Assembly: GCF_026210795.1 (NCBI RefSeq)
Contig: NC_089429.1
Span: 6,944,001 to 7,008,000 of the forward strand
Reading direction: 5' to 3'
From: Rhizophagus irregularis
Lineage: Eukaryota
DNA: 64,000 bases
The position numbers and the translations under genes were made by a program. Below, piece after piece: positions 6,892 to 55,880 of the stretch; positions within the stretch are counted from its first letter, which is position 1, and each line of letters starts with the position of its first letter. The notes beneath the pieces are model-generated. The model saw nothing but the letters and a program-made list of their open reading frames with translations, searched no databases and was not told the DNA's origin.

Positions 6892-8071
6892 TGTAAACGG
6901 TTGAATATCAAGTGCGAAAAGATGATAAAATTTAATCACCAAATGTAATTGCCAAATATTAAGAACGAACAAACTAATTATGAATTGGCGTAGATGGATA
7001 AATAATTAGCCGAAAAGGATAAACATTTAAGAAGAGCAATGATCTACATGATGTAATATTTATCAGATGATTAACAAAAAACCAATAGAATAATTAGAAT
7101 CGATCAATTGCGGCTTAGCAATCTTTAACAATAAGAACAATTAGAAAGAATAATTATAAGCCACAAAAGGTAGATCATATAAAATGGAGGGATAGTGGAC
7201 TAAAGGAACACGCATAACAAAAATACATACATTCATTCTCATGTTTTATTATTTCTTGCGAACATTTGTCTTTCTTTCTTGAAAAATCTTCATTTAATAT
7301 TTCTTTTATTTCAAAGATTTCTAATTCTTTCGAAAAGTATATCGTTTTACAAATAAGTTTTTATTCACAAAATTTACAATATATCTTAAATTTTACTTCC
7401 ATAAATAATAATATAAAAAGATAGTATAAAGATGGAACATAAAAGATAACATATTGGAAAGAACATATATAAAAAGATAGCATATTAGAAAGATAGTTCA
7501 AAGATAATATGTAAAAAGAACATAAAAGATAGTATATAAATAGAATAGAAAGTAGCATAAGATTTGTATAAATAGAGAGCGGAATTCAAAGTAATTCCAC
7601 AGTTCTCATCCACAGAACTCAATAAAAATATAAGTTTCATTTAATTATTTGTTAGTGAAGTTTAATATTAATTAAAGGTAATAAGTTCGCCCTAAACTTT
7701 AATTAATGTTTGCTTAATTAATTTTAATTGAATAAAATGAAAATTTTAAGATGAATTAAATATACATTTTTGGAAAGTAATAATTCGTAGCGAGAGCTAT
7801 CGAAGTTTGAAATTAAAGGTAAAAAGTGGATATAATTTGGGAAAATTTAGAGAAGTTAAATTTTATTTTATATCGTTCGACATTTTATATTACTAACGCT
7901 ATTTATATCGTGAACCAAGAATGTTGTTGTATGTTGTTTGATTATATCGTTGATTATTTGTTTGTTCGTTTAATTGTTCGTTCATGCGATTATTCGTTCG
8001 TTCGACCATGAGAATGCCCGTTCGATGTGGCAACTCTGTAAATTGATGACAGAGGGAATTGGGGGATCTCA
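6892..8071 (+). repeat. 5' LTR
   Basis: Starts TGTAAACGG and ends GGGGGATCTCA; both end segments match 17578-18661. Confidence 0.92.
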
Positions 8072-8073
8072 TA

Positions 8074-8086
8074 TGGTGCATGCTCC
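8074..8086 (+). promoter_or_regulatory. Primer binding site (cognate tRNA not determined)
   Basis: TGGTGCATGCTCC begins 2 nt after the LTR end; TGG is complementary to tRNA CCA. Confidence 0.65.
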
Positions 8087-9228
8087 AAGAAAGAAAATGA
8101 TCATCATCACATGATTATTAAGAATATGAAGATTTAATTTCGTTAGTAAGTCACTGATAGGTATTATTAATCAATATTTTATTTTTAGAATTTATTTTTA
8201 GATTTCAGGTTTTAACGAGTTCAAAAGGAACCAATAAATCAACAAGGATTTAATTGAGTTAAAAACTTGAAAGGTGAAAGATTGAAGTTTGAAGTCGTGC
8301 AAGTAATCATTTAATCGATAGAAAGCACGAGAATATTTCTTTTGGAAATAAAGTACCTGAGAAATTTCGTAAGGAGACGTGGAAGTGAAAGATGAATTTT
8401 GGAATAAAGATTAATAATGGGAGAACACCAATGCATTATCTGGGGTTCATCTGTGTCGTATGGGTTACGTCTGAGTTTGAATTTTGGATAAATGCTCGAG
8501 ATTGGAAAATTTTTATTCTTCGATATTAAGGATTATAACGTATGGGTTACGTCAAATCTGGATACCCAGCTCAATAATGCGCAAATTGCTTTGGGGACGG
8601 GGAATGAAAATTGTAAAGACACCTACTATCAAGAAACATTGAAAGAATAAAATGGGACAAACCTGTAAACTATCATGCTTTTACCCAATGGGAAAAAGAT
8701 AGAGATAAGCCCAGTATAGGTCCACCAACTTGAGAAAAGATAAGTTAGTTTAGACGAGTTTTATGGATAGCAGATGACTTTTGAAACTGGATTTCAAAAG
8801 GTTAGATTCACCCGTTAAAAGACAAGTCGACTAACGAAAGAAGAAAAGACAGATACGTTGTATTGTTACAGGTCCTAGGCTACATTTCAGATGAGGGTTC
8901 CTGGTGTAGTGTGCTAGGTCACGTTCTCATTACAATGTTCTGTTAAAAGAAGATAAAATAGAAGGATATTTACACATTAACGAGCTGTATAATGAATATT
9001 ACGTGCAGTATTTAATAATAGAGTAAAGTCCAAAAAGAGGATATGAATAAAAACGTTGAAGAAACATTTTATGTATTTGAAAAGAAGAACATTTATTTGA
9101 AAAGAAGGACATTTTGTGTGCTATAAATTAATTTATATAATATAGAATATATAATAAGAAGGATTTATGTGGACGATAAGAAAGATTGAAAATTCACAAA
9201 CTTTAAAAGTTATGAAAATTTTGGAGTT

Positions 9229-9380
9229 TGTGATATGTGATATGTGAAATTATAAATCTCGGTGATAGAAGATAAATTTTAGAATGTGATATGTGAAATT
9301 ATGGATCACGGTGATAGGAGATAAAATTTTAGAATGTGATATGTGAAATTATGAATATCGGAGATAAAAGATAAATTTTG
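9229..9380 (+). repeat. ~50-bp tandem repeat (3 copies) in the retroelement leader
   Basis: Repeated TGTGATATGTGAAATTAT...GATAAATTTT units. Confidence 0.8.
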
Positions 9381-9668
9381 TGGCGCAGTAAAAACCTCCG
9401 CAGTCTGAGGAGATCGTGGACTTAGGATAATTTTTGAAATTTTGAGGCGCAGTAAAAATTAATAGTAAAATATGGCGTAGCAAATATATAAAACTGAAAG
9501 ATGGAATCTAAAGATTGAAAGAAGTAATCTATTTAAAGATAAAAGAATGTTTAGAAGATCAAAAATAGAAACGAATAAACGATAAGAGTGAAATGTATAT
9601 ATATAGAGAGATAGGAATCCGATTGAGATTCTGGATGGATATTCATAGCAACTTAACTAAAGCATACA

Positions 9669-12600
9669 ATGGAATGGTACCATCAATGGGAAAGTGAATA
9701 TAGAACACATAAAGAGGAACACGAATTAGGAACGGAAGAATTGGACGAATGTTTAAATTGTGAATTATGTCATCCAATAGTAAATGAACCAATAGTATTC
9801 AAGAAATTTTGGGATGCATTATTTAAATTTAAAGATGCAATAATAATATATAACAATGTAACAATTAATGGAGTATTAGATTTATTAAGTATAAATAATT
9901 CAGAAAGAGAAGATACAATACATAAAGGAAAATGTAGGAATATAATGGATAGAATAACGGAATCGATAAGGTATAGGATACAACCAAAAATGAAAGAAAA
10001 AGGATTACGAACAATTATATTAGTAATTGTAAGAGACTGTATTGAAGGAGATTTAGAGAATGAAGTATTTGATAGATTAATTGGAAACCCTGAACTAGTG
10101 GAACACAAATATATTTTAGAAGATTGGGATGTTGAAAGAAGGTTTGAGAAATTTTGGCAATGGTACAAAATCATATCGAAAGAAGTTGAACCATTACGAG
10201 TAAAGATGGGAGCAATAAAGACATTCAGGGAATTACTATATGAAGAAGAAGGAATAGCTATGAATGAGGAGAAAGTAAAAGAATTAATGTCCAATATGGA
10301 ATATGGGAACATAAACATAGAGAATGTTCACGAATATCACAGGAATATGGTACAAAAGATAATAAGAATATTTATAGATACTAGGGGCTTTACAAAAGAA
10401 CCAGAAGATTCAGAAAGTGAAGATAGCTTAGAAAGTTACGAAATGAAGAAGAATTTTAACATGAGTTTATATCTTAGATTTGAAAGATTCAGGTACTGGT
10501 GGAATGACAAATATGAAGGTAAACGAATACATACATATCATGAAAATGATTCATTAGAATGGTTCGAAAAGATGTTATCTGAGGGAGAGAATTTGCAAGA
10601 AGATACTGTAAGGAAGCTGACGGATAGTATGACATTTAAGGATAGCGAAGATATGTATGAAAAAGATCCTATTATATTGAGAATAGATGATGGAGTAATA
10701 GAATGGATTGTAACAGATTTAAAAGAAGCGATGGAAAGAACGCAAAAATTTAAGTTAGTGGAGATAGAGCAAGAAGAAGGTGATGAAATATATGATTCTG
10801 AGGAAGAAATAGAAATAATAGTAGAAGATAAAATGTGGAAGTTAGGTGAAATAAGAATAGGATTAAGACAACTAATAGTAAACCCAAAAGAAAAGCTTAT
10901 CAGGGAAATAATGAAATTTGGAATAAAAGAAAAGATAGAAACAGGAATACTGTTAACGTGTGATTTTATAAGATATTATATTTTTCTGAAAGGGAGATTT
11001 GATAAGTCTGAAGAAATAAAGGAATGGATGGATTCGAGTACGATAATATGTAATAGATGCAGTAAACAGAAATTAGATTATATGATATCAAAAGAAAATG
11101 GCAGATGTGAAGAGTGTAATCAGGAAATACGGGAAGATGAACAAGATGAGTTAATAGAATTAAAAAACAACTTAGAAAAGCTAGGATACGAAATAGATGT
11201 GTCAGAAATTCAAAGAATAAAGAATTTTGGAGTTAATAATCGAATAATAGTGACAGAAGAATTCATAGAAAGGTATATGAAAATAATAGAATTAGAAGAT
11301 AGAGAGTTAAGAAAAGAGGTGCACAGATGGTTAAATGAGAATACAACCTGGTGCGAAAGATGCGAAATAAGATGGATGAATGATATGTTTAGATTAGGAG
11401 GAACTGTATGCAAAGATTGTGAGGAAGAAGATATCGATAAAATTGATGATCGGGTAAAAAGATTTCAGAAGATTTTTGAAGATATTGGAACAATAATAAT
11501 TGAAGAAGAATTGTTAAGATTAACTAGTATGGGATATACAGATGGAGAAATTTTAGATAAAGAATTCATTGGAATCTTTCAAGAAAATAAAAATGAGTCA
11601 GAGAAAGAATTGAAGAAAAAGTTAGATAAGTTGTTGAAAGAACAAGCAGGAATAATAGATAGTGAAGAAAGTGGTGAAAAGAGTGATAATGAAGAATCAG
11701 AAGATAATACAGATGATTCAAAAAAAACTGGAGAAATATTAAACCCAGATGAAATATGGGATGAAAATATTGAAAATTTTAACGAAGATGAGTTTGAAGA
11801 TAAAATTGAAAATGTTATAAATAGAGGAGATATCGACTTAAGTCAAAACTCAGATACGAATAGTTTATTAAATATTAAAAATTCTGACAACGAAAGTGAA
11901 TTATCTGATTACAATTTACAAGATTTATTTCAAGAGGATATATTAAATATGGCAACTGAGAATCAAATAAAAAGATTGATAGAGAATGCTTTAGGTTATC
12001 CAGTTAATACTTTGAATGCAGCAGTAGGAGCGGGAGCAAGTTTGATAGAAAGGATTGAAAATGCAGGGAATGAAGCAGGGGGAGTAATTAGTGTACCACT
12101 CTTTTATGGAAAAGAAGATGAAGACGTTAACGATTGGGTTAGACAATTTGAGGTAGCATTTACAGCAGTCGGAAAAGCAGCTGGAGCTAATGGTACAAGA
12201 CAAGCAGCATACGCAGCAGCACATTTAAGAGGGCAGCAGCACAATGGTATAATGAAATGAAAGAAGTAAATGTAGGTCACTTAGTGAATTGGGCAGATGT
12301 AGATAATGATAATGATTTAAAACATAGAATAAAGAGGAGATTTACCAGAGAGGATGTTAGAAGAAAGAAAATGCTAGAATTAAGAAAACTCGACAGGAAG
12401 TAAATGAAAGTGTTGAAGAATACACAAGAAGATTTAGACAAATATTAAGAATAGCAACTAGGGGACATGCCTTAGCAGATGAATATCAAGTAGATTTTTA
12501 TATCGAAGGATTAGAACCAACAATAGGGTATCAAGTTAGAAGACAGAATCCAGGGAACTTAAATGGGGCAATAGAAATAGCAGTAAGAGAAGAAGGTGTA

Positions 12601-13584
12601 AAGGACGAATTTATTAGGAAAGCAATAGGTACACCAGTTAGTACGAGTATAGACATCAAAAGAGATAATAATAGACAAAATATGTTCGCAAAACCATTGA
12701 ATGAAAACTATGAGGACGAATTAGTTAAAGCGTTTGAAGAAAAGGCAAGAATTAGTAAATTAGAAGGACTGGTATCAAATATAGAGAGAAGATTAAATAA
12801 TGATAATAGGAATAGGTATTGACCAGATGTAGGAAGGAGATTAAATAATGGTAATAGGAATGGTTATCAATCAAATCAGAATAGGGTACCAACATGTTTC
12901 AGATGTAATAAAGTGGGGCATTATAAGAATAATTGTCCTGAAGGAAGGAATGCAAGAGTAAATATGATGGACGAATATGATGACCAAGAGGAATATGATT
13001 ATGATGGATATGAATATGAGAAACCACAATACGATGGAGTATATTATACACAAGGATATTAATATGATTATGAAGATAGGGAATTAAATTATTATAATGA
13101 ATTGTACGCAAAAGATAACGCAATAAAAACAAGAAGACAAACAAGAAGGACGAATCCAACAGTGGGATATAAAAATAATAATGAAGAAGGAAATTTACAA
13201 GAAGAATTAAGAGAAGCGGGAAATAGAATGGATGATAGAAAAATACCAAGTGGTACAATGGCACCAAGTTATACACCTGAACGAACTGAACAGAATTGGG
13301 ATAAACCGATAGGACCAAGAAAAATGAAATGGAGTAATAAAAGGCAAGATTTTTACGACCCAACAGAAGGACTAAGAAAATGGAGAGAAGCAGGGGGACC
13401 AACAAAACCTAGGGTATATGGACCGAGATTAACTGACGAAATACCACCTTACGACATTGTGGGAGACGTGAAAAATTGTAGAGTGAATATAACATATGGA
13501 CAATTAATAAATGAGAATACTAAGTATTATAAGCAATTGAGGGAAGGAACATATAGACCAAGAAGTATGAACAAGAAAAATTGA
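9669..13584 (+). pseudogene. gag: ORF1/Gag: ~760-aa acidic, Cys-motif extension fused to Gag (capsid region from ~11949, CCHC knuckle 12895-12936); frameshifted
   Basis: FYGKEDEDVNDWVRQFE and RQEVNESVEEYTRRF capsid motifs, CFRCNKVGHYKNNC knuckle; frameshifts near 12230, 12390 and 13060; in-frame TGA near 12820. Confidence 0.85.
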
Positions 13585-14097
13585 CTACACTCGGTGGGAA
13601 CTATGAAAAATGAAGAAAAAAGAACTACAGCAATGAGAACAGAATTAGAAGTTGAAGATCAATTAGTAAATGTAATAATAGATACTGGAGCAGCAGTAAG
13701 TGTGATAACAGATAAATTAAGAAGAAGATTGAATATACCTATATTTGGAAAAAGTAAATTTAGATGTACAATAGCAAATGGGCAAAAGATAGCGGCGTTA
13801 GGAAAGGCAAATATAACTTTGAGGTACAAAGATGAATTAGAGATACTGAAAGAAGTTGAAGTGATCAATTCAGAAGAAGAGGATCTAATTTTGGGAAATG
13901 ACATATGGAAGTTGTATAATGCAAAAATAAATTTTGAAGATCATACCTTAAGAATAGAAGAACAGGGAGAAATAATAACGATTCCAGTAGGATATGAAAG
14001 AGAAGTAGCATATGAAAGTGAGGAGAGTGAGGACGATGAAGAATATGAAAGTAACGATGAAGGAGAGGTATTCAAAATGCACCAGAATTTTAAATAG
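13585..14097 (+). CDS. Retropepsin-like aspartic protease
   Basis: IIDTGAAVSVI active site and LILGND motif; in frame with gag across TGA-CTA. Confidence 0.9.
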   Translation, partial: LHSVGTMKNEEKRTTAMRTELEVEDQLVNVIIDTGAAVSVITDKLRRRLNIPIFGKSKFRCTIANGQKIAALGKANITLRYKDELEILKEVEVINSEEEDLILGNDIWKLYNAKINFEDHTLRIEEQGEIITIPVGYEREVAYESEESEDDEEYESNDEGEVFKMHQNFK

Positions 14098-16166
14098 AGA
14101 GTCTTGGCTCTGAAGAGAGAGAGACGGAAAAGATGCTCGAACTAAGTGAAAAATTTATGCAAAAACTAAGTATAGGAGAAGTAGAAGAACCAATTTGGGA
14201 AAATATGGTAAAATTACTATTAGAATACCAAGATATTTTAGAATACGACGAGGAAATAGAAGGAATAACAAAAGCAGCGCAACATGAGATAAAGATAAAA
14301 GAAGGGGTAGAACCAATAAAGCAAAGAAGATACAAAGAAACAGATGAAAAGGCAAAATTTATAAGCGAAGAAGTGGATAAATTGTTAAAACAGGGAAGGA
14401 TAAGGAAATCAAAAAGTCCATGGAGTTCACCTGTTACATTAGCAGGAAAGAAAACAGGAAAATATAGGTTCTGTATTGATTACAGAAAGTTAAACAAGAT
14501 AACTATAATGGATAGTTTTCCTTTGCCAAGAATGGATGAATTGTTAGACAAATACAGAAAAGCAAAATGGTTTTCAAGTATAGATCTAGCGGCAGGATTT
14601 AATCAGGTAGAAATGAAAGAAGAAGACAAAGAAAAAACAGCATTTGTATGTTCGAAAGGATTGTTTGAATATAATGTAATGCCATTCGGTTTAACGAATG
14701 CACCAGCAACATTTCAAAGATTAATGGACGAAATATTGGAAGAATACATAAACGATTTTGTAGTAGTATATATCAATGATATTATGATATATTCAGAAAA
14801 TTTGAAAGACCATATGGAACATGTGGAAAAAGTATTAAAGAAGTTACAGGAGAATAATTTAATAATAAAATTGAAGAAATGTAGATTTTTGGAAAGAAAC
14901 ATAGAATTTTTGAAACATATTGTAGGAAATGATGGATTAAGGCCAGACGATAAAAAGATAGAAAAGATAAAAGAAATGAAGGCACCAACCACAGTAAAAG
15001 AAGTAAGATCATTTTTAGGACTTTGTTCATATTACAGAAAATTTGTGAAGAATTTTTCAAAGATAGCAAGACCAATAAGTGATTTGAGAAAGAAGGGAAT
15101 ACCTTTCATTTGGGGAAGAGAACAACAAGAAGCGTTTGAAAAATTGAAAGAAAAGTTAATACAATATCCAATATTACGACATCCAGATTGGAAGAAAGAA
15201 TTTTTATTAATAACAGATGCATCAGGAAAAGGATTAGGTGCAGTATTAAGTCAAAAAGATGAAAAAGGAAAAGAAGTAGTAATAGCATACGCAAGTAGAA
15301 GTTTATTACCAGCAGAAGAAAATTATCCGATAACAGAATTGGAATGTTTAGGAATAGTTTGGGGAATTCAACATTTTCATAAATATTTAATCGATAGAAA
15401 ATTTAAAGTAATAACAGATCACAGTGCATTAAAGGGATTAATGAATGCAAAGATACCGAAAGGAAAAAGAGCGAGATGGGTAATGGAATTACAGCAATAT
15501 AATTTTGAAGTAATACATAGATCAGGAAAAGAAAACACGAATGCTGACGCATTGAGTAGGTTATTAAAGATAGCAGAGGATCAACCAGAAATAGTAATAA
15601 TCGATGGAGTAGATGGATTAGGAAAAACAAGTATAGTACAAAATTTAATTAAAGAATGGGAAAAGCAAGGATTAAAAGTAAGATTCAATACTTATAAAAG
15701 AAGAAGAAAAGATAAAGATAAATTTTATGAATCAAAGATGGAGACAGAATGGAAATTCAGAAAAGAAGTAGTAGAACAAATAAATAGAAGAATGTTAGAA
15801 TATGATGAAAATACAGATATAATAATTTTAGACAAATCACCATATTGTGAATATTATTATCAAAAGACGAAAAGTTTTGACAGAGGATTAATTACTCCAC
15901 ATGGAAATCATGAGATGGAAAAAGAAATATTCAGATTGAAAGAAATAATAGATAAATCAATAGTGATATTTTTAGAAAAAGATGGCGATGTATGTTGGAA
16001 GAATTACATCGGAAGAGAAACAAAGAAAATGGAAAAATCATCATATCCAACATTAAAAAAGGATGAATATTTGGACATGGTTAAAATGTTTGAAGAAAAT
16101 CAGAGTGTGTACAAAGATACCAAAAGATACAGTCGAGTAAAAGTTAAAAACGACAATAGTAGCTAG
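14094..16166 (+). pseudogene. pol: Pol: reverse transcriptase + RNase H + C-terminal P-loop NMP/dNMP-kinase-like domain
   Basis: RFCIDYRKLN, MPFGLTNAPATFQR, YIND (mutated YxDD), TDASG...NADALSR, then IIDGVDGLGKT and IILDKSPYCEYYYQ. Confidence 0.92.
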
Positions 16167-16274
16167 AGAAAAGTATTTAAAGAAGTGGAGAAATGGAGAA
16201 GAGCACAGGACTAAAAATATAGAACACATAACGAAAATAACAAATTCAGAAGTAGAATCAATTAAGGAAATATT

Positions 16275-17429
16275 ATGGAAGAAAATAATTATAAGAGAAT
16301 AATAGACAATATCGAAAAAGAGAATAAGTATGAATTGAAAGAGGGAATTTTATATAGAGTGAAAGGACAAAACAAATTTAGAGTAATCAGGGATTATGAA
16401 TACGAAGGATTGATGTACATGATGCATGATAATGAATTATCAGGGCATTTTGGGATAGAAGCGACATTAGATAGAATAAAAGAAAATTATTGGTGGAAAA
16501 ATATGAAGGAAGATGTAGAAGAATATGTAAAGACATGTTGGAATTGTCAGATGAGAGGAAAACCAAGAGGAAAGAACGAATTAACGTCAATAAAGATAAA
16601 TGAACCATTCGAGATGATTGGGATAGATATAGTTGGACCATTAAAAAAGACAGAAAAGGGAAATAAGTACATTGTAGTAGCAATGGATTATTTTACAAAA
16701 TGGCCCGAGGCCGCACCACTAAAAGAAGCTACGGCGAAAGAGGTAGTAGAATTTATTTGGAGGGACATAATTTGTAGACATGGGTGTCCAAAGAAAATAA
16801 TTAGCGATAGAGGGACTCACTTTAACAATAAAATGATGGAAGAATTAGTAGAAAAATGTGGGATAAATCATAGATTAAGTACACCATATAGGCCACAAAC
16901 AAATGGTTTGGTCGAAAGATTCAATAAAACTTTATGCGAGGGATTAGCCAAATTAGGAGAAGAAAATTGGGATAAGCATATACCATCCGTATTATTTGCA
17001 TATAGAACGAAGAAGCAGTCGTCAACAAAAATTAAACCTTTTTATGCAACATATGGAAGAAGAGCAAAACTACCATTAGACAAAGATGAAAATAAGATAA
17101 CATTAGCTGACAGAATAAAAATATTAATTGAGAAGCTACCGGTAATAAGAAGAAAAATAAAAGAAAATGTGAAAGAAGTTCAAGAGAAACAAAAACAACA
17201 ACACGACAAAAGAGGAATTAGAAAACCTAAATTTGAAATAGGAGAAAAAGTATTATTATATGAAGCATGGAGAGAGAAACAATGGTCTGGAAAATTACAG
17301 AACAAATGGAAAGGACCATATTTAATTCATGAAGAATTTGGAAATGGAGCTTATAAACTCAAAGAATTGGATGGAAGAATACTAAAAACACCACAAAATG
17401 GAGAATGGCTAAAGAAATTTTATGATTGA
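16275..17429 (+). CDS. Integrase (HHCC, DDE core, GPY/F), separate ORF, no chromodomain
   Basis: HDNELSGHFG...CWNC, GIDIVG, SDRGTHF, GLVERFN, WKGPY. Confidence 0.93.
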   Translation: MEENNYKRIIDNIEKENKYELKEGILYRVKGQNKFRVIRDYEYEGLMYMMHDNELSGHFGIEATLDRIKENYWWKNMKEDVEEYVKTCWNCQMRGKPRGKNELTSIKINEPFEMIGIDIVGPLKKTEKGNKYIVVAMDYFTKWPEAAPLKEATAKEVVEFIWRDIICRHGCPKKIISDRGTHFNNKMMEELVEKCGINHRLSTPYRPQTNGLVERFNKTLCEGLAKLGEENWDKHIPSVLFAYRTKKQSSTKIKPFYATYGRRAKLPLDKDENKITLADRIKILIEKLPVIRRKIKENVKEVQEKQKQQHDKRGIRKPKFEIGEKVLLYEAWREKQWSGKLQNKWKGPYLIHEEFGNGAYKLKELDGRILKTPQNGEWLKKFYD

Positions 17430-17577: not shown

Positions 17578-18661
17578 TGTAAACGGTCAAATATCAAGCA
17601 TGAAAATATGATAAAATTCAACCACCAAATGTAATTACTAAATATTAAGAATGAACAAATTAATTATGAATTGGCGTAGATGGATAAATAATTAGCCGAA
17701 AAGGATAAACATTTAGGAAGAGTAATGATCTACATGATGTAATATTTGTTGAATGATTGACAAAGAACCAATAGGATAATTAGAGTCGATCAATTGCGGC
17801 TTAGCAATCTTTAACAATAAGAACAATTAGAAAGAATAATTATAAGCCACAAAAGATAGATTATAAGTAAAACACATAAAGCGAATTAAGAGAACATATA
17901 AAATAATGTCAGAAAGATTAAAGAACATAAAATAACATAAAAGATAATATAAAAAGATAATACAAAGATATTATAAAAGATAATATAAAAAGATAATACA
18001 AAGATATTATAAAAGATAATATATAAAGATAGCATATTAAAAGATAGCGTATTTAAAATATAGATAGCATATTAGAAAGATAGTTCAAAGATAATATGTA
18101 AAAAGAACGTAAAAGATAGTATATAGATAGAATAGGAAGTAGCATAAAATTTGTATAAATAGAGAGCAGAATTCAAAGTAATTCCACAGTTCTCATCCAC
18201 AGAACTCAATAAAAATATAAGTTTCATTTAATTATTTGTTAGTAAAGTTTAATATTAATTAAAGGTAATAGGTTCGCCCTAAACTTTGATTAATGTTTGC
18301 TTAATTAATTTTAATTGAATAAAATGAAAATTTAAGATGAATTAAATATACACTTTTGAAAAGTAATAAATCGTAGCGAGAGCTATCGAAGTTTGAAATT
18401 AAAGGTAAAAAGTGGATATAATTTGGGGAAAATTTAGAGAAGTTAATTTTTATTTTATATCGCTTAATGTTTTATATTACTAACGCTATTTATGTTATGA
18501 ACCAAGAATGTTGTTGTATGTTGTTCGTTGATTATGTTGTTTGATAATTATGCGGTTGAATATTTGTTCGTTCGTTCGTTTATTCGTTCGTTTGACCATG
18601 GGAATGCCCGTTCGATGTGGCAACTCTGTAAATTGATGACAGAGGGAATCGGGGGACCTCA
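17578..18661 (+). repeat. 3' LTR
   Basis: TGTAAACGG...GGGGGACCTCA; contains internal AAAGATAATAT-type tandem repeats. Confidence 0.92.
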
Positions 18662-19594
18662 ACGCCAAACTCAATTTTTTTAGAGGTAAATAATTTTTTT
18701 AAAAAAATCTTTCAGCAACACCTTAACATTTCTTTTTTTATTTTTAGGGATATCAGATATCTTGTTTTTTAAAAAGATTTCTTTTGGAGTATCTAACACT
18801 CTTTTTCTTTTATTTTTGAAAACACTGGACACATTAAAGGTAAATGGGTGTTTTTTTTGAAAAAAAAATTATTATTGAAATTTCGTTAACGTTTCTTTTT
18901 AATTTTTAGGAATACTGATTTTTCTTGAAGCTCAATGTTGTTTTTTTAAAATAAAACCAGGTTCAAAAAATTTTTTTTTTTATTTTATGAATACGACCTA
19001 GAAGGTAAATGGACAATTCTTTTAAAAAAAACTCCTATCTATTATTAAAAAATTTCTTTGAAAACTTTACTAGCCTTTCTAGAAATCTTGGACTTTCTTG
19101 AACTCTCTTGGTAAAAGAATTTGCGCCTATTTGATTTTAATTAGCAGTTTTATAATAATTTACAGAATCAGCCAATTTATTGACCAATTTGTTAAATATA
19201 TGATCGGCAAATTATTTACTGATTTGTCAACAATGTAACCTAATTAACCAAAAATGGCTCATATAAACAAACCTTTAAAATAAAAAAATAGCAATGAAAA
19301 AAAAATTTTTTGTTTATCTAGACGAAAAAACAACTTATTACGAAATTTTTTTTTTACAAAAAAGTAACCTATTTAACTAAAAATGGCATATATAAACAAA
19401 CCATTTTTTTTGTTTAAAATAAACAAACTAGTAAAATTTATGACGAAAAAATAAACAACTAGTGAAACTTATGACGAAATTTTGTTTTTTACAAAAAAGT
19501 ATGATAAATTTTTTTTTTATTTAAAAAGTAAATAAATAATTAGCGAAAACTAAACATCCTTTTTCTTCTATCTATTTTCATTTTTTATATAAAA

Positions 19595-22111
19595 ATGTCA
19601 GAAGTTTGGGAATATTTCCAAAAAATTAGAAATGACAATAATGTCATTATATCATTAAACTGCCAATTATGTGAAACAGAATATGGAGTATTAACTTCTA
19701 CAACAACACTTCGTCGACACTTAAGAAGTATTCATGCTTCTACGTATGTATATGGACCAAACCTTTTATCACAAAACTCTTCTTATACTTCTGCTGAACA
19801 AAAACATATAACAACAAAGCTTACACAATGGGTTACTGTTGATTTACAACCTTTTACTGTTGTTGAACAAGAACAGTTTCAGGAGTTAATTTATACTTTA
19901 GATCCACGTTACATTTTACCATGCAGGCAAACTTTGAAAGAAGAAGTAAATTCATTATTTTTACAAAGAAGAGCAAATGTCAAATCCGAAATTGATAATC
20001 TTACATCAAAAATTTCTTTAACAACTGATATTTGGTCTTCTACATATAATAATACAGCCTTTTTAGGAATTACAATGCATTACATTACCAATAACTGGAC
20101 AATGAAAAAATGTTTATTGGATTTTATTTCCATAGAGGAATCCCATTCAGCAGCACTAATTTTAACTAAACTAACTGATGTTTTACAAGAATTTAATATA
20201 AGTAATAGAATCATATCTCTTACAACTGACAATGGTAGCAACATGTTAGCATGTGGAAGAGAACTTGCTAATGAATTAGAGGCAGGATTTTTTAATTTTA
20301 CATTTTCTCATAATAGATGTGTAGCACATATAATCAATTTGGCAGTTAAGGCTGGAATGAAATATTTGGACTCTTCTATTGTCAAATTGCGAAAATTTGT
20401 TAATAAAATAAAAAATTCTCAATTATTAATTGATGATCTTAAAAGTATTTGTAAAATTAAAAATGTAAAATTTCTAATGCCAATACAAGATGTTGACACA
20501 AGGTGGAATGCAACTTACCAAATGATTGAAAGACAAATTTCTACACGAGATGTAATAGAAATCTTAGTGAATTCTCATAACAATATATTAAAAGATTTAT
20601 ATCCAACAGATATTGAATGGAGAAAAATATTGGTATATTTTCAAATTTTTTTTAATTTTTAATTTAAATTAAATTTTTTTATTGAATTAATTTGAAAATT
20701 AATTAAATTAATTTTTTTATATACTATTAGGAATTAGTTGATGTATTAAAACCTATGTATAAAGCTACTATTTTACTTTCATCAACATCAACACCAACGC
20801 AAGGAGATTTGCGTCTAGCTTTTTTGGGAATGCTAGCTTCTTTGCGACGTCAGCGACAATCAGATCTAGCAAATGCCATATATGACAAACTTTGGACCTA
20901 TTGGAACAGACATTTATCTAAATCATTAGCTATTTCTGCAATTCTTGATCCACGTTACAAACTTACAACTTTTCATAATCAAGAAGAACGCAAAAATTAT
21001 ATTAATCATTTACAAACTTTATTTTCTTCGTACATATCAAATTCCCAAATTACATCAAATACAACAGATGTACACTACCCTCCCAAAAGTATCCGGTCAA
21101 CCAATAAAGATCATATTTTATTAATAATAATTAATATTTAGTTGGCCATCCATGCATGCTTCAATTTGGCGTGGCATGCTCTCAATTAAATTTTAATGTA
21201 AGTTTTGGATGGAATTCTTTCTCACTTTTTTTTTAGCCATTAATCCAGTATTAAAATTTTTGTATCGAACAATTATGTCTGTAACAGTACTTTTTGGAAA
21301 TTTTAGGATATGACTGATTGCTTCATAAGTTTTTATCCTTTCCAAAGGCTAATAATTTTCTCACGCTCACTCAATTCACGAGTTTTTCACATTTTAAAAG
21401 TAGCCGAATGGCACAGTAACAAAAAAAGCAAAGATCAGCATTGGCAAAATTGAGGTGTTATTATTTGTTTTATTGCCAAATCTGGTACAAGCATCGTAAT
21501 ACAATAAAAATACATTCATTTTAATCGTTAGAACCAGGGGAATTGTTTTTTTTTTAAAAAATAATACTTTATATATTCAATCTTGAGAAAATCAAGTTGA
21601 GCTTGGCCGGATACTTTTGGGAAGGTAGTGTAACTTCGCAAGATTCAAGAACTTATTTTTAAATATGATTAATAATAGTCAAAATTATGCAGAAAATTCG
21701 GAATATGATGAAATTAATAATTATTTGAGTACACCATGTGATATTAATGCAGATCCGTTAGTGTGGTGGAATGTTCACCAAAAAAATTATCCTACACTTT
21801 CACTAATAGCAAAGGATTATTTAATTATACAAGCCACAAGTGTATCATCAGAGCAAGCCTTTTCAGTGGCAGGTAATACTATTACACAAACAAGAAATAG
21901 GCTGGATCCTGAAACAGCACGTGCAACTTTATGTCTTAAAAGTTGGATTGAGAATAAGTTGGGAATTAATATAACTAATGAAGATGATAAAGAAACTAGT
22001 AGTAATAGTAGTGATAGTGATTATTGTGATAGTACTAGTATTATTAGCAGTGAAGACAGTGATAATGATGACAGTAATAGTGAAGATAGTGATAGTGAAA
22101 GTGAAAGTTAA
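19595..22111 (+). pseudogene. hAT (Ac-like) transposase with BED finger, one intron (20633-20730), interrupted by a Tc1 derivative
   Basis: VWEYF..CQLC..LRRHLRSIH BED finger; LTTDIWS, TTDNGSN, RCVAHIINL, TRWN; dimerisation domain PLVWW..YPTLSLIAKDYL..SEQAFS; the GT-AG intron preserves frame. Confidence 0.93.
21073..21630 (-). mobile_element. Internally deleted Tc1/mariner element
   Basis: ~28-bp TIRs (CACTACCCTCCCAAAAGTATCCGGTCAA), TA TSD; minus strand retains an HTH N-terminus (RELSEREKII..PKSTVTDII) and the C-terminus (ESMPRQIEAC..PTKY). Confidence 0.92.
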
Positions 22112-24559
22112 TGTTTTTTTATTTTAATTATTCATTAATTATGTTTTTACATAAAGGAATTTTCAAAAAAAACTTTCAATAAAGTCCAAATTCAATATTC
22201 CTAAAATAAAGAAAACTTTTAAAAAAATGTATATTTAAAAGAGTTCTAATGGTTTTGGTGTTAAAAAAGAATTTTAACAAATGTCATTTACTTCCAAGAA
22301 AAGAGTTCAGCATTCATAAAAATAATAAAGAAGTCTTTAAAGTTTCTAAATAATTTTTTTTAAAAAAAATTAATTGCATCCAATAAAATCAAAGAAATCA
22401 GATATTTCTAAAAATAAAAAACGTTAGACATTTCTAAAGAATTTTTTTAAAAAAAAATGTCATTACCTTTAAGAAATAGTCTAAGGTATCTGGTGTTCCT
22501 GAAATAAAAGAAAGAAATGTTAGAGACATTTCTAAAAGAATTTTTTATAAAAAAAAACGTCTAATTACATTGTATTTAGCGTTCCTAAAATAAAGAAATA
22601 TTGGAGATGTTTCTAAAGAAATTTTTTTAAAAAAAACGCCAATTTGCCTTTAAGAAAGTCCAAAGAGTTCAGCACCCCTAAAGTTTTTTTTTAAGAAAAA
22701 TGTTTCTAAACTAGTTAATTAAAATTAAAATAAAAAATTATCAAAAAAAAAATTTGGTACAAATTTTTTTTCATAGGACCGATCGGTCCTGGTCCACAGT
22801 CCGATCCTGAACTGCGGACTGATGAAGACCGGATCAGGACTGACCAGACCGGACCATTAACATCCTTAGGCACAGGAGACCCTAAATCGCAATTTATTTT
22901 TTTGATGTCAAAAAAGCATAAGTATATGCATTATGATTATGAGTATAAATTGTCATACTCATATTCTAATTATAAAGCATAATGCTTTAAGTATTATTAT
23001 AAAATGCAACTCAAATTTTTATTTGAGCTTTTCTAAAATTGATCAAAAAACATATTAATTCTTGATGATCACCTACAACACTATCCAAATTAAGCGAAAA
23101 AATGGATAAATTTGGAAATGATCTGATCACCTTCTACGCTAAAATAAACTAAAAAATCAGACTACCAATTTTTTTTTAATAAAAATGAACTGATTTTTAT
23201 TAAAAAAATCAGTATATTGTTATATTTTTTTTTTAATTAAAAAAGCTGATTTTTATTAAAAAAATCAGTATATTTTTTGATTTTTGATGATCAACACAAA
23301 AGTAAGAAATGTAAATTTCTTCATAATCTATCAAGTCAATAATCATTTTTAGTAGCACAGAAAAATTCAGTGCAAAAGTTTCTATAATGATTGTTTAAAT
23401 CTTAGTGTCTTAAGTCTTAAATCTTATGTCTTAAGTCTTATGTCTTAATTGCCGATCCACGAATGAATCGGACCTAGTGATCGGCAAAATCAAATCTCCA
23501 CTTCCAAAAAAAGTAAAGTCGGTCAATTTTTAGCCAAACCAATTAAATTTTTTTTTTAAAAAAACTTAGAGATTAAATCTATTTTGTAAAAATATAAATT
23601 TAAGTATTTCAAAACTCAAAATTTTGCGAATTGCTTTTAAATATCATCAATTAGCGAAATTTTAGTAAAAATTATTTATCATTTTTTTTTCTAATAAAAA
23701 TACTAGCAAGAAGTCTCAAAATTCACACATATATACTTTGGACATATATTAATAGAATATTTAAAAAAAAATGATATAATAAATGTAAAAATATTTCCTA
23801 CTTTAAGGTTAACTAACAATAATCCATTTTCCCATTTTTAATGCTTATATGAAACTTTTATAAATCAATCTTTAGGAATTTAAAAATGGTAATTTTATCT
23901 TAAAATATAAGTTCTGAACATATTTAAAGCATTTATTTTCAAATTATTAAGTGAAAAAATTTTTCAGTTTTGTGTCGATGGTTACACAAATTACGAATTG
24001 AAGAAATTTAAAGTTTATTGGTGAAAGTTTGACTTTTTTAAGAGCTATTTTTGATACTTTAATAAAATAAAGCAAATGTCAAAGTTTTTTCATTAAAAAT
24101 TTCAATCTATTCGATTAAAAATTGGTGGATATTCCTATATTGGAAATGCAGATTTAAGGGGTGGTCCGATTGGTACATGGATTACTAATTAAGTCTTATA
24201 TACTAAGTACTAAATACTAAGTATATTAAAGATTAAAATGGACCTTTTTTTACCAAAAAGGAAATCTTTTTGAATTCAATGGCTAGATCAATAATAAATT
24301 AGGAAATGATTGACAATAGAAAATTTCTTAAAATTTGAAAAATTCTTCATTTTTGCAAAAAATGCTCAACAAATGATTATCTGAGTTAGTGTTCTGAACG
24401 GATCAGGTCAATTCGGGTGACCCGTCGGGTTGACCCGAAAATTTCGGGTCGGGTCATCAAATTTATGACCCGACCTCGGGTCGGGTCACAGTTTGACCTG
24501 ATTCGTTGACCCGTTTGACCCGACATAATATTTCTGGTCAGATGTGTCAAATATGTAAA

Positions 24560-25259
24560 AAAAAACGCCAAAACGTTTTTTTTTGTATTATTATTAAGAA
24601 AAAATGTTTTGGCGTTTTTTCATATAAAATTATTAAAAAAAATGCAGAAACGTTTTTTTTTATATTAATTATTATATAAAAAACGTTTCGGCATTTTTTC
24701 ATATAAAATTATTAGAAAAAAATGCCGAAACGTTTTTTTTGCATGATTATTAAGAAAAAATGTTTCGGCATTTTTTCATATAAAATTATTAGAAAAAAAA
24801 TGCCGAAACGTTTTTTTTTTGCATTATTATTAAGAAAAAACGTTTCGGCGTTTTTTCATATAAAATTTAAAAAAAACGCCAAAACGTTTTTTTTTATATT
24901 ACTTATTAAGAAAAAACGTTTCGGCGTTTTTTCATGTAAATTATATTTAAAAAAAATGCCGAAACCGTTTTTTTTTTGTATTAGTTGTTAAGAAAAAACA
25001 TTTCGGCATTTTTTCATATAAAATTATTAGAAAAAAACGCGAAACGTTTTTTTTTGTATTAGTTGTTAAGAAAAAACGTTTCAGCATTTTTTCATATAAA
25101 ATTATTAAAAAAAAATGCCGAAACGTTTTTTTTTATATTAATTATTATAGAAAAAACGTTTCGGCGTTTTTTCATATAAAATTATTAGAAAAAAACGCGA
25201 AACGTTTTTTTTTTGCATGATTATTAAGAAAAAACGTTTTGGCGTTTTTTCATATAAAA
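24560..25259. repeat. Alternating-orientation AAACGTTTCGGCG repeat array (resumes at 28637-28980)
   Basis: Repeated ~80-bp units, each holding an inverted pair of the same motif. Confidence 0.9.
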
Positions 25260-25599
25260 CTAGTTGTAGCCTGTCGCGCTGCGCCGGGGAATGGAGGGTG
25301 CATAATGATTAAAGCAAGAGAGTAATATAGCAATATATTTGTAGCATACCCGATTTGCAATGCAGATTTTTATTGTTATCATATCATTACAATTGTATTA
25401 GTATAAGGCAAAAAAATGTAAATAATTTTATGTCTCTATGACCAATAGAAGGCGAGTTATTCCATATTTTTTCTTCAGAATCGCAGATTCTAAATTATTG
25501 ATAAAATACATATGAACTTATCACCGCCTTTTAATAGTCAAATTTTATGGTTCACTGGTGGATCACGAATTAATTCTTTCCAGAAGTCCATTTTGCCTC

Positions 25600-26650
25600 C
25601 AGGTGGTGTTCCTATAAAACTATCAATAAAATGTTAGGAAATGTTCTTAAACAAAATTAGCAAAAGAAAACCTTTGTCTCCAAGAGTCTCTGAAAGTCGT
25701 TCCTATAAAAAAAATTATTAAAAGAACATTAGGAACATTCTTGAACAAAATTAACAAAAGAAATAAAAGAAAACTTACTTTTTATCTCCAAGAGTCTCCA
25801 GGGGGCATTCCTATAAAAAAAATTATTGAAAGAACGTTAGAAACATTCTTAAACAGAATTAAGAAAAGAGACGAAAAAGAAAACTTACCTTTCGTCTAGG
25901 GTGTTTTTACAAAAAAAATTATCGAAAGAACATTAGGAAATGTTCTTAAACAAAATTAGCAAAAGAAAATGAAATCCTTTTGTCTCCAAGAGTCTCTGGG
26001 AGGCGTTCCTATAAAAAAATTATTCAAAGAATGTTAGGGAACATTCTTAAATGAAATTAACAAAAGAAAACATAAAAAACTTACCTTTCATCTCCAAGAG
26101 TCACCAGGAGGCGTTCTATAAAAAAAATTATTGGAAGAATGTTAGGAAATGTTCTTAAACGACATTAGCAAAAGAAACAAAAAAGAAACATTACCTTTCA
26201 TCTCCAGAGTCACCAGGAGGCGTTTCTACAAAAAAATTATTGAAAGAATGTTAGGAAACGTTCTTAAATGAAATTAACAAAAGAAAACAAAAAAGAAACA
26301 TTACCTTTCATCTCCAAGAGTCACCAGGAGGTGTTCCTATAAAAAAAATTATTGAAGAACGTTAGGAAATGTTCTTAAATGACATTAACAAAAGAAACAA
26401 AAAAGAAACATTACCTTCATCTCCAGAGTCGCCAGGAGGCGTTCCTACAAAAAAATTATTGAAAGAACGTTAGGAAACGTTCTTAAATGACATTAAAAGA
26501 AAACAAAAAAGAAACATTACCTTTCATCTCCAAGAGTCACCAGGAGGTGTTCCTATAAAAAAAATTACTGAAAGAACGTTAGGAACGTTCTTGAACGAAA
26601 TGAATGGGAAAAAATGAAAAAAACACCTTTTATTTTTAGGAGTCCATTTT
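25600..26650 (-). repeat. ~120-bp tandem micro-exon/intron units (~8 copies)
   Basis: TAG|GAACACCTCCTGGTGACTCTTGGAGATGAAAG|GTAAT...CCTAAC...TTTTGTAG repeated. Confidence 0.85.
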
Positions 26651-26845
26651 GTCTTCAGGGTATTCCTACAAAAAAAGGGTAATGAAAAAAAAACATTATA
26701 AAATGTTCCTAAATGAAGTAAAAATAAAAATAAAAAATAAAAAATAGATTGATTATCTAAATACACAACCAATAAAATTTTAAAATCACATCACGTGATA
26801 GGGTGCATTTGAACGCCAGGTGCGTTTAAATTTTAAACCCTTTTA

Positions 26846-28501
26846 TCTATTATTTATATCTACATATCTATATAACAAAAAAGTCATATAAAATTGTATA
26901 ATGATATAATGTGTATTTATCTGTATTATTGATTTATTATCTGTTATTTTTTAGTTAAATTTTTGGATCGGTAAATCAATATCATGAATACCGATCAATC
27001 TGATCATTTATATCATCATTTTATCATTACAAATGCTGATCATTTTATATAATAAATCATACTATGAACACCGATCATTTCTGTTGACTGAAATTATCAT
27101 AGCTTTATTACCAAATTACCAAAATTTAGATATTTTAAAAAAAGCTATTATAAAATTAAAATTATCTATAATATTATAATTTCGTATGATTTAACATAAA
27201 ATATATTTTTGATCCCTGTTTCATATGATACATCTACATAACATATTATAAATTAATTTTTTCATTATATAGCACATATTAAAGTAAGTTAAATAAAAAA
27301 ATTCTATAGTATTTAGATTACCCTGTATAAATAATTTGAATTGTGTAATGGGTGGTTTGTCTGCTCCCGAAATATTTGATCTATATTATTATGGTTAAAA
27401 TCCATTAATCAGTAAATTATAGCATTAATACCAAATTGCTAATCATTGCTATTTTATTGCTGAAATTAAAAAAAAAATTAATTAGCCCGTTTATTGATTA
27501 CAAATACTTATTATTATAACTATGTACTCTTTTCATGATTAGATTGAAGGTCCTGAAAGTGTGATCCAAAGTATTCGTGTCGGATATTCACTAATTAGAT
27601 TCCAATTTTTTTAAAATAAAATGCAATTAAATGTTTTTTTGATTTTTTTTCTTATAACAATGGGACACAATTATTTTTTTTAAAAATTATATTTATTTCG
27701 TCAATAACAATATTTTTTTCATAATAACAATATTTTTTTCGTCAATAACAATAGGATACAATGTAATTTTTTTTGATATTAATAATGATAACTTTTAATA
27801 TTATTCATTCAATATTAAAATTTTTCGATAACAATAAATTCCACAAATACATTATTTTTATCAAAATGTTCTTTGATAAATCATAAATCATCAACATATA
27901 TTTTATTTTTGTGATAATATATATAAAACATCAATTTTCCATCAACATAATATGTAATATTTTGTTAATACTAAATTAATATGGCTTCACTTCAGGAAAC
28001 ATTTGAAGATAAAATGCCTGAACAATGTAAAAAAAGATTAAATAATGAAAGTCAAACCTGTACAGACATGCATAAATCTCATAGATATCAGTGAATTAAA
28101 ATTCTCATATTACATCAAGAGAACTGTCAGACAAAAAACATTGTATATAATGAAATTTTTCAAAATATTTAACACTCATTTATTGTAAATATAATTTAAA
28201 TTACTTTAATGCACTATAATTATATCATTCTAATATATAGCTACATTATTGTAAATATAATTCATATCATTTCTAAATATAATTTATATTATTCTAATAC
28301 TGTAAATATCATTTTACTAATTGTTAATATGATTTAATATATCTTATTTTAATATTTTTTTGTTAACTAATTATTAACTATATATCAAGTTTTAATTAAT
28401 AAACAAAAAACTGTAACCATTTTTAATTTACATTATAATACCAAATTGTTCTATTTAAACCAACTCATTAGGTCCAGTGCAAAGCAACAGGTAACTGCTA
28501 G
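26846..28501 (+). mobile_element. Second, oppositely oriented Helitron derivative nested inside the first (5' end approximate)
   Basis: TCTA-type starts at 26846-26867; 3' CCAGTGCAAAGCAACAGG hairpin + CTAG|T; short remnant ORF MASLQETFEDKMPEQCKKRL near 27981. Confidence 0.55.
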
Positions 28502-29439
28502 TATATATATAAAATAATTAGTACTGTTAGGCGCAAATGAATCATGTGAATCATGCGATACAATTCAAAGATTATTTATACAGGCTAATCTAAACGTTAG
28601 AAGATCGACATGTATTTTTTTATTATATTATATAGATTATTAGAAAAAAAACGCTGAAACGTTTTTTTTTGTATTAATTATTATAGAAAAAATGTTTTGG
28701 CGTTTTTTCATATAAAATTATTAAAAAAAACGCCGAAACGTTTTTTTTTTGTCATTATTATTAAGAAAAAACGTTTTGGCGTTTTTTCATGTAAATTATA
28801 TTAAAAAAATGCCGAAAACGTTTTTTTTTGTATTAGTTGTTAAGAAAAAACGTTTCGGCGTTTTTTCATATAAAATTATAAAAAAAAATGTCGAAACATT
28901 TTTTTTTTGTATTAATTATTAAGAAAAAACGTTTCAGCGTTTTTTCATATAATAAATATTAAAAAAACGCCGAAACGTTACTTTTTAACAGAAAAATGTC
29001 AAGTTTGGCATTTTTTTGTTTTTTTTAACTAAAAAACGTCGGGTTGACGTTTTCAATTAAAAAACCCGGGTTTTTTTAATTTTTTAATCATTTTTGATAC
29101 ACAGGTCAAACGGGTCAAACGGGTCGGATCAGGTAAGACAGATTACCTGACCCAACCCGACCCGATTTTTTTTGTCGGGTCGGGTAAGATGGATTACCCG
29201 ACCTGACCCGACCCGTTCGGAATACTAATCTGAGTGTTATTGTGATATTTCATAAAAAATATTTTTCTTACTATTTTTATTTTTAAACTACTTGAATTTA
29301 TAATTAATGAAAGAATTAATTTAAAATCCATGTCAAGTTATTTTCAAATTTTTATCATCTCAGTTCTTAATTTTCATATTTTTATTTTTTATATAAAATT
29401 TTTTTAAATTAAACTTCTTTTACCAAATACACTATAATC

Positions 29440-35400: not shown

Positions 35401-36250
35401 TTTTTTATTAAAAAACATTTTTAAAGAAGTTTCAAAACTTACCTGAAATATCGGTGTTTACGTTGGAGTTGAATTCCTATATAGAAAAATAAAAAAAACG
35501 TTTTTAAAGTTTTGAAACATTTTGTTTTGAAACTTAACTGGAATATCGGCGTCTCATGTTGGAGCTGAATTCCTATATAAAAAAATCGAAAAAAAAAAAC
35601 ATTTTTTTTTATTAAAAAATGTTTTTAAAGTTTTGAAACATTTTGTTTTGAAACTTACCTGGAATATCAGTGTTCACGTTGGAGCCAAATTCCTATATAA
35701 AAAAATCAAAATAAAAAACATTTTTTTTACTAAAAAACGTTTTATTAAAGGAAGTTCCAAAAATCTTTCAAAACTTACCTGAAATATCGTTATCCACGCC
35801 AGAACCGATTAAACAAAAAAAATGCTTTGAGAAAAAGATTTTTTTTCAAAATAGTTGAAATAGTTTAAACTATTATTAATAGTCTAAATTTGGTAATAGA
35901 TCAACTAATTACTGTGACTGCAGCTTAATACATCATATGATCATAAGTTGAAGTGTATCACTGATTTGCTAAACTTTTGCCATTATTGATATTAATTAAT
36001 TAAAAAATTGTTTAAAAATTGTCAAAAAAGTTTTTAAGTTAATTGTAAATCAATAAAAAAAAGTATTGGTCGATTTATGGTTTTTTTTATATTACAACTC
36101 AACCAAAAATCAACCAAAAATCAACCAGTTTATTTATGCCAAATTTTTTTTGATTTTTGTAATTAGCCGAATGTATGATGAATCATATGATTGATTTGCC
36201 AAATTGTTGCCGAAAGGTCTTATTGACAAAATAAATGATTTTGACCAGTG
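32437..36250. mobile_element. ~3.8-kb non-autonomous TIR element filled with splice-unit repeats
   Basis: Ends (T)ACTGGTCAGAA / TTTTGACCAGTG with TA on both sides; the flanks rejoin as a continuous reading frame on the minus strand. Confidence 0.7.
33020..35800 (-). repeat. Long array of micro-exon/intron units (several subfamilies, >20 units)
   Basis: For example TTTGTAG|GTTTTGACTTTTGGTTCTTGGGCTTTGGATATATGG|GTAAGT and TATAG|GAATTTGGCTCC...GATATTCCAG|GTAAGT. Confidence 0.85.
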
Positions 36251-54575: not shown

Positions 54576-55880
54576 ACATAGATTATGAAATGCTGCAGCT
54601 GTATCACCATCTCTACTAGCATGATAAAGCAAATAAGAATCACTTTTCTTTTCGACCCAGCTAGCAAAAATAACAAAATGTTGAGACTAACTATAATTGA
54701 ATCATATTATTTCGATTTTTTATATCCCCTTGATGGTAATGAACTAATAATTTTTGTGCCAGGTACTAAATAAAATTGCATGATTTCCTTCATTAATTTT
54801 ATTGGTAGTAAATCCTGATAAGGATATACTTTGAAATAGTAATCAACAGAAGAAATATCTTGAAATCTAATCAATGGAATTAATCTATGTGTAGTTTGTT
54901 TCATTACTTCAATATCATCATTGGTCCATTTCTCAGGATCTTGATTAACATTAGGATTTTGAGCGCATGACCATCTAATAAAGTTACTCCAAATTTCACT
55001 TTCATCTAATTTAATTTTTTCTTTGAGAATGAGTTCAATCATTTGGGATGATAATCTTAAAAAGGTATTTTTTCCAAACAATAATTCTGGAGTTTCACAA
55101 ATTATTTGTAAACAATAATTTTGTATAGGCTCAAAATTCTCACAATTAAAAGTATTATCAAGAAATTTAATGATTAAAAATTCTTGAATATGCTTAACAA
55201 GTGATTCCAATTCAAATTCATTTGCTGCCGTTAATAATAATGTCAAAATATCTAAAGATTCAACACTTAAATCAATCTTACCACAATATAAAAATCTATT
55301 ATTAAATTATTTTATTTAGCTTAGTTTTTTACATAATTTAAGTTATCAAGTTTAAAAATTATTTTGAAATAAATTACCTGAAGATATTTTCTAAAATTTT
55401 GGGTGAAATATTAGATATATTAAAAATGAACTTTCCGTCCTTCTTTTCCTTTAAATTAGAACGAAAATAATTTGATTGACGGCAGAGAATTATGGAATGA
55501 GCGTAAATTTCTTGTACATTTGGTTCTTCTCCCACTTGTATAATAACGTCATAATTCTCTTTACTTTTAAAAAGTTGTTCATAATTTTTCGTAAGTTCTA
55601 ATTTTGATGCCATTATCCTATAAATTTGGATTTAAAATTTTTTTTTATAAAAAAAGTGTTTTTAAAAATTTGTTTTTTTAAAAAAGTGTTTTTAAAAATT
55701 TTTTTTTTTTAAAAAAAAAATAATAAATAAACTTTAATTTATATAGTAATTACTTTTCATTTAATTTGACCAAAAATGCAGAACAGGTTTGTTCAATTCT
55801 AGTAAGTAGTAACGTCGGATATTCCGCTGTGTAATTTTCAGAGTTCATCACTACCGATTAAATATATGGCGCAATAGAAT

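Follow-up and report, generated by a model that had tools for sequence, protein, structure and literature searches.

The 64,000 nucleotides analysed here (the window; Rhizophagus irregularis, assembly GCF_026210795.1, contig NC_089429.1, positions 6,944,001 to 7,008,000 of the forward strand) contain an 11.8-kb Ty3/Gypsy long terminal repeat (LTR) retrotransposon whose Gag protein is preceded, in the same reading frame, by a 760-residue extension, the subject of this analysis. The two LTRs are direct repeats with TG...CA ends and 90-91% identity in blastn high-scoring segment pairs (HSPs); about 200 bp of the 5' LTR (window ~7185-7400) have no counterpart in the 3' LTR. The Pfam domains follow the Ty3/Gypsy order, running from capsid, CCHC knuckle and protease through reverse transcriptase (RT), RNase H and a weak thymidylate-kinase-like P-loop domain (15576-16214) to integrase, at whose C-terminus Pfam finds no chromodomain at E <= 1. 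In its LTRs, primer site, purine tract, Gag capsid, CCHC knuckle and protease-RT-RNase H-integrase order the element resembles Ty3/Gypsy elements (Metaviridae) without a chromodomain, from which it differs by the modular extension before the capsid, by the kinase-like domain after RNase H, and by a pol region divided into separate open reading frames (ORFs). A target-site duplication is absent, the 5' flank ending in CTGA and the 3' flank, which does not match it, starting with ACGC; we take this to mean that the copy is rearranged or recombinant, with no bearing on the element class. The flanks of sibling LTR ends, seen as loose read ends at window 8071 and 17578, tend to start with ACG, which hints at a target-site preference.

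The initial annotation of this DNA had placed the extension at 9669-11948, and this holds. The frame upstream of Gag is open from stop to stop over 867 codons (9657-12260), and 760 codons separate an ATG at 9669 from the Gag ATG at 11949. Since the probability of 760 open codons is about 1e-36 given the base composition, a chance open frame is excluded; the other five frames contain 15-106 stops, and codon usage in the extension correlates with that in pol at 0.95. It had also been pointed out that the extension stays open while gag is frameshifted, which is true but uninformative. Two of the interruptions, a change of frame at 14094 and one just before the integrase, recur in relatives (locus L001), which leaves four breaks private to this copy (near 12230, 12820, 13060 and 16164); all four lie downstream of the extension, and since the probability of this is P = 0.25 (not significant), the argument carries no weight.

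All sequence motifs quoted in the initial annotation are present, namely CLNCELCH (residues 28-35), RFEKFWQW (158), RFERFRYW (270) and the fingers CNRC-x15-CEEC (461-483) and CERC-x15-CKDC (562-584), but the anatomy read from the sequence around them is a revised one: an HHCC motif, three A modules of about 85 residues, three helical B modules of about 70 residues, two of them followed by a C4 finger, and an acidic linker (Table 1). In CLNCELCH only C31 (41 of 43 rows) and C34 (41 of 46) are broadly kept, position 28 being Asp in 27 of 43 rows; the conserved motif is instead H-x3/4-H-x9-18-C-x2-C, found in 34 of 39 aligned N-terminal rows, with H14 kept in 41 of 43. The RFE(K/R)FxxW motif, taken to mark a module in two copies, opens a longer A module that is present three times (residues 44-125, 156-243 and 270-332). 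By profile the first two copies match each other (hhalign probability 97.4). With the A2 profile none of 1000 shuffles reaches the score of the third copy, while 16 do so with the A1 profile; this copy lies inside a subfamily-limited insert that is missing from most aligned rows and present in the relative P0242. The helical repeats put at about 100 residues are real and three in number, their unit being rather a B module of ~70 residues plus a ~30-residue finger. B units 1 and 2 align with z = 9.9 and units 2 and 3 with z = 5.4 (0 of 1000 shuffles each); units 1 and 3 compared directly give only z = 1.4, and all three match the family profile at E <= 2e-16. The identical x15 spacing of the two fingers holds in this copy but is a subfamily trait, spacers among 180 proteins being 13 (17 cases), 14 (4), 15 (49) or 20 (12) residues long. 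Likewise, the linker is indeed acidic, but acidity spans the whole extension, whose net charge is about -75.

Residues 1-245 are predicted to form a compact fold (predicted local distance difference test score, pLDDT, 93.8), and the HHCC and C4 motifs are predicted zinc sites. The models are helical without a Rossmann-type layout, and the C4 fingers are modelled as a hairpin plus helix. Comparison of the model of residues 1-245 with solved structures gave no convincing match, and zinc-finger families (GATA, LIM, integrase HHCC) were reached only below threshold (zf_UBZ E 0.002, KDM6_GATAL 0.06, LIM 0.38). The extension shares the ligand order H-H-C-C at its N-terminus with the integrase HHCC domain, and the hairpin-plus-helix C4 arrangement with treble-clef fingers, both being standard traits of those domains. 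It differs from these in that its H-to-C spacer is shorter (9-18), that its profile does not resemble that of the integrase of this element (probability 0.09) and that no Pfam finger family was reached at its cut-off. Neither a membrane segment (maximum 19-residue hydropathy 1.4) nor a motif resembling a nuclear localisation signal (NLS) was found in the extension. The strong negative charge and the missing NLS-like motif weigh against direct DNA binding, and together with the low hydropathy they fit a protein-binding character.

Table 1. Features of the retrotransposon and of its N-terminal extension, in window coordinates
Feature	Position	Strand	Basis or remark
5' LTR	6892..8071	+	TG...CA; blastn HSPs against 3' LTR 90-91%; alignment; loose read ends at 8071
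Primer-binding-site-like TGG sequence	8074..8086	+	immediately 3' of 5' LTR; presumably a tRNA-Gly match
Leader, 1.6 kb	8087..9668	+	50-bp x2.9 tandem repeat at 9235-9379
N-terminal extension, 760 residues	9669..11948	+	same frame as Gag; 87.6% identity with P0242 across all 760 residues
Predicted zinc site H14-x3-H18-x12-C31-x2-C34	9708..9770	+	motif in 34/39 aligned N-termini
A module 1, residues 44-125	9798..10043	+	profile comparison; model pLDDT 93.8 over residues 1-245
A module 2, residues 156-243	10134..10397	+	hhalign A1-A2 probability 97.4; within confident model
A module 3, residues 270-332	10476..10664	+	E 2e-5 with A2 profile, 0/1000 shuffles; low pLDDT
B module 1 (residues 389-458) and C4 finger (461-483)	10833..11117	+	repeat and motif evidence
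B module 2 (residues 492-559) and C4 finger (562-584)	11142..11420	+	block pLDDT 60-86
B module 3 (residues 593-660), without finger	11445..11648	+	family-profile match
Acidic linker	11649..11948	+	33 D/E, 6 K/R; conserved LxxLF motif at end, before Gag Met
Gag (capsid, CCHC knuckle)	11949..13584	+	PF03732, PF19259, PF00098; broken here
Gag lesions in this copy	near 12230; 12820; 13060		frameshift; stop; stop
Aspartic protease ORF	13585..14097	+	after gag stop, same frame; L001 layout alike
RT-RNase H-thymidylate-kinase-like ORF	14094..16214	+	other frame (as in L001); premature stop 16164
Integrase ORF	16275..17429	+	own ATG
3' LTR	17578..18661	+	purine-rich tract just upstream

A word-indexed search returned 38 homologues of the extension (36 named Rhizophagus, 24 containing a capsid), a profile search of 1.84 billion representatives returned 147, and a B-module search of long proteins 22, all Rhizophagus. 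Thirty clusters were looked up among the 147, of which 11 bear a species name (R. irregularis, R. clarus, R. diaphanus) and 19 none; every species-named homologue is thus far Rhizophagus. Among 186 extension-type proteins a capsid is present in 41, with the extension modules upstream of it in all 41, the remainder being shorter or partial, and module number varies among relatives from 0 to 4 for B and from 1 to 3 for A. P0242, which stands for a cluster of 106 sequences, carries the full-length extension on a different Gag. No host domain was found at cut-off in the 60 relatives scanned (6 have only Gag/Pol domains, 1 a weak domain of unknown function and 53 nothing), and 20 of the 22 long B-module proteins have Gag-type Pfam domains, the other two holding a capsid by sequence. 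The possibility of a host gene captured in one copy only, raised in the initial annotation, thus finds no host gene or domain behind it, and the extension, kept in siblings as an in-frame addition to Gag, is by these comparisons a family feature rather than a one-off capture.

Among the 19 extension differences listed, which are the best-supported rows, 13 are synonymous against an expected fraction of 0.32 (p = 0.001), an excess that, judged on these substitutions, shows purifying selection on the extension. The proposal of a conserved, element-encoded accessory region is therefore supported by the siblings and by the lack of a host gene, the roles suggested for it (anti-silencing, targeting or particle trafficking) being conjectural, and we are nearly certain that the extension is real and selected. 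Its history differs from that of the capsid to which it is joined. In the full-length lineages that lie furthest apart, identity is 51-53% over the first 170 residues vs 31-33% for the capsids; P0002 and P0008 share 92% in the N-domain and 57% in the capsid, P0002 and P0022 74% and 76%, respectively. The extension and capsid trees conflict, the capsid alignment rejecting a 12-protein group of the extension tree in an approximately unbiased (AU) test at p 1.7e-47 (18 of 21 rows used; P0004, P0020 and P0039 left out). Because the junction motif is nearly constant ahead of many different Gag N-termini while the sequence after the Met varies, the point of exchange can be placed at the Gag Met; three reads of one polyadenylated (polyA) RNA library run span the end of the extension into a different Gag start. 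As far as alignments can tell, these observations show that the extension has been exchanged between capsid lineages at this Met.

The junction itself is retained: a pattern search finds Met followed by Ala or Gly in 33 of the 35 proteins with an intact capsid start. The in-frame ATG at 9669 plus this retained Met correspond, at the sequence level only, to the arrangement of glycoGag of murine leukaemia virus (MLV), an accessory long Gag whose start lies upstream of the normal one and in frame with it, both starts being used; according to the part of the account available (PMC5120145), MLV glycoGag starts at a CUG and adds 88 residues with a signal or membrane segment, whereas the extension starts at an ATG, comprises 760 residues, is built from repeats and has no hydrophobic signal or anchor segment. 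Separate starts also occur further downstream. Eighteen kinase-bearing metagenome loci were examined, and in all 13 that reach the integrase start this has its own ATG after a stop, at most 8 nt from the kinase stop in 7 of the 13; in the window and in L001 the protease stop is followed by an RT Met, while the NCBI models P0063 and P0067 fuse kinase and integrase. Since separate starts are common in the lineage, a second start at 11949, beside 9669, is plausible.

The pol region is split into separate ORFs across the lineage (window 13582-17429; L001 375-4242; L003-L017). The gag stop is TGA followed by CTA, which we take to be a read-through-type context, with the protease in frame; the protease stop lies within TTTTAAATAG, and the RT follows in another frame with a conserved Met. 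The ATG of the integrase often overlaps the kinase stop. Small extra ORFs stand between the kinase stop and the integrase in L005, L006, L009 and L014, and a short stretch of the window (16215-16265) resembles that of L002.

The extension had further been suggested to belong to one element design with the kinase-like domain. Rhizophagus is the sole named source of both (of 38 kinase matches, 31 are named Rhizophagus and 7 carry no species name), and four gene models (P0027, P0028, P0037 and P0040) combine pieces of the extension with the kinase, although these are predicted over probably broken copies. In P0068 the kinase is linked with a Gag that has 74% identity to the Gag of the divergent extension lineage, and the 18 kinase loci were too short to reach upstream of gag. 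Co-occurrence of the two is thereby supported in sequence, not counted. Another model, P0069, joins a kinase-like domain to a domain with Pfam PF00293.

Our best reading, which we hold tentatively and at somewhat less than an even chance, is that a long Gag isoform bears the extension as a protein-binding adaptor, acidic and stabilised by zinc, and that a short Gag beginning at the conserved Met 11949 would be made as well. Long Gag would start at 9669 and short Gag at 11949, and a minority of long Gag would be built into the particle, its extension facing outwards, where the matrix sits in the established capsid architecture of retroviruses. There the extension may bind host proteins that carry the RNA or the particle between the many nuclei of the coenocytic hyphae, or shield it there.

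Several observations weigh against this reading. The leader contains 38 ATG triplets (8072-9668), so that ribosomes could begin at 9669 only by way of splicing, an internal promoter or internal entry, and the conserved junction Met could equally be a protease site or a former start. PolyA-library reads cover the element at about 1x depth, in both orientations, without transcript ends and with DNA carry-over possible, and give no direct sign of which start is used; nearly all come from sibling copies, those at least 99% identical to the window copy numbering 1 of 178, 1 of 221 and 7 of 177. Fold and family comparisons of the extension yield no match that points to a partner, and some distant relatives (P0142, P0175) lack the B module or have a single A module, so no single architecture is required. 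The siblings are represented by gene models, and introns are predicted in some of them; the 19 extension differences represent only the best-supported rows of the difference tables; the extension tree was obtained by a quick search, and both trees contain long branches that affect them.

Among the alternatives, the extension might be released from Gag, by a cut near the junction or through a spliced RNA of its own, and act as a nuclear anti-silencing or RNA-export factor, as CERV does for the Cer1 element of C. elegans. CERV offers a close likeness, being an accessory protein encoded at the 5' side of a Gypsy element that has sequence in common with a long Gag, a candidate C4 site and domains that resemble no known fold. 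It comes, however, from a spliced mRNA and has a G-protein-like domain and candidate NLS and nuclear export signals (in the available part of PMC10309623), none of which was found here, a distinction drawn from its description and not from sequence comparison. The net charge and the missing NLS-like motif speak against a nuclear factor, as do the lack of a splice joint within the extension among the listed RNA joints at their low depth (~1x) and the lack of a stop between extension and Gag in any of the 41 capsid-bearing models, and we consider it unlikely, if still a serious contender.

That the frame is continuous in all capsid-bearing models, and that the N-domain is conserved more than the capsid between distant lineages, would also suit a structural outer layer on every Gag, a greatly enlarged matrix with 11949 unused as a start; the variable repeat number, the free exchange between capsids and the Gag Met kept in 33 of 35 argue otherwise and make it improbable. 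We find it rather improbable, too, that the extension travels with the complementary DNA complex and guides integration, its fingers and repeats reading chromatin proteins in place of the lacking chromodomain. The integrase without a chromodomain match, the ACG tendency of sibling flanks and the predicted hairpin-plus-helix fingers fit such a role, but comparison with reader domains showed no similarity, the targeting domains known from chromoviruses and Ty5 are part of the integrase, and it is usually the integrase that causes a bias in short sequence. A captured host gene or neutral passenger, in favour of which one can cite the obscure origin and the restriction of all species-named homologues to one genus, is largely refuted and very improbable given the relatives scanned, the Gag or capsid in all 22 long B-module proteins, the synonymous excess and the retention across capsids 33% identical.

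Beyond the element, three ORF pieces just past the 3' LTR (19544-22111, + strand) encode a hAT transposase with a BED finger, an RNase H fold and a dimerisation domain, and the window also contains imperfect repeat arrays with 78-120-bp and ~170-bp units, many self-complementary (24549-28990, 33545-35862, 49131-49815). A perfect 49-bp inverted repeat with a 33-bp spacer lies at 57178-57308, segments duplicated at 5.6-5.9 kb spacing (56139-57809 and 61769-63744) surround a 501-residue F-box-like ORF (59137-60642), and an ORF on the - strand (54707-55306) has a weak BACK (BTB-Kelch) match (E 6e-4).

Coding regions at the 5' side are already known in Gypsy elements, and the extension is a real, selected and unexplained addition to them. 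The extra 5' ORFs of the plant elements Ogre and Retrosat2 (ORF0 in the latter) are likewise lineage-wide coding regions of large Gypsy elements with no assigned function, but are described as separate ORFs in the available parts of PMC6317226, PMC6431247 and PMC3485330, whereas here the region is fungal and Gag-fused, combines two kinds of repeat and has its point of exchange at the Gag Met. From an Env-like accessory ORF it is distinguished by the lack of a membrane segment and by its position 5' of gag instead of between pol and the 3' LTR. A full-text literature search, covering few subscription journals, found no paper on this family or design, which authors' repeat libraries may hold unnamed; the accessible portions of PMC10309623, PMC5120145, PMC6317226, PMC6431247, PMC9289625, PMC8647823, PMC11075540, PMC3248453, PMC7264820 and PMC3485330 do not describe the domain family, the Gag fusion in a fungus or the kinase pairing. 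As far as these sources extend, LTR elements are said to carry fixed extra domains only rarely (PMC9289625), the repeats of R. irregularis that expanded recently and produce small RNAs include Gypsy elements (PMC8647823), and most repeats of this fungus remain unclassified (PMC11075540).

One could also speculate, and we regard this as quite doubtful, that arbuscular mycorrhizal fungi harbour a Gypsy lineage with a virus-like multi-ORF genome, with separate starts for extension, Gag, RT-kinase and integrase, whose 5' cassette is a new-fold repeat adaptor coating the particle, passed from capsid to capsid as a replaceable module for host interaction and allowing moves between nuclei or across hyphal fusions in the coenocytic host. 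More immediately, a set of 'hypothetical' Rhizophagus gene models is explained as element-derived, and a selected and unmatched accessory domain with a confidently predicted fold offers a concrete bait with which to learn in what way a retroelement interacts with its multinucleate fungal host.
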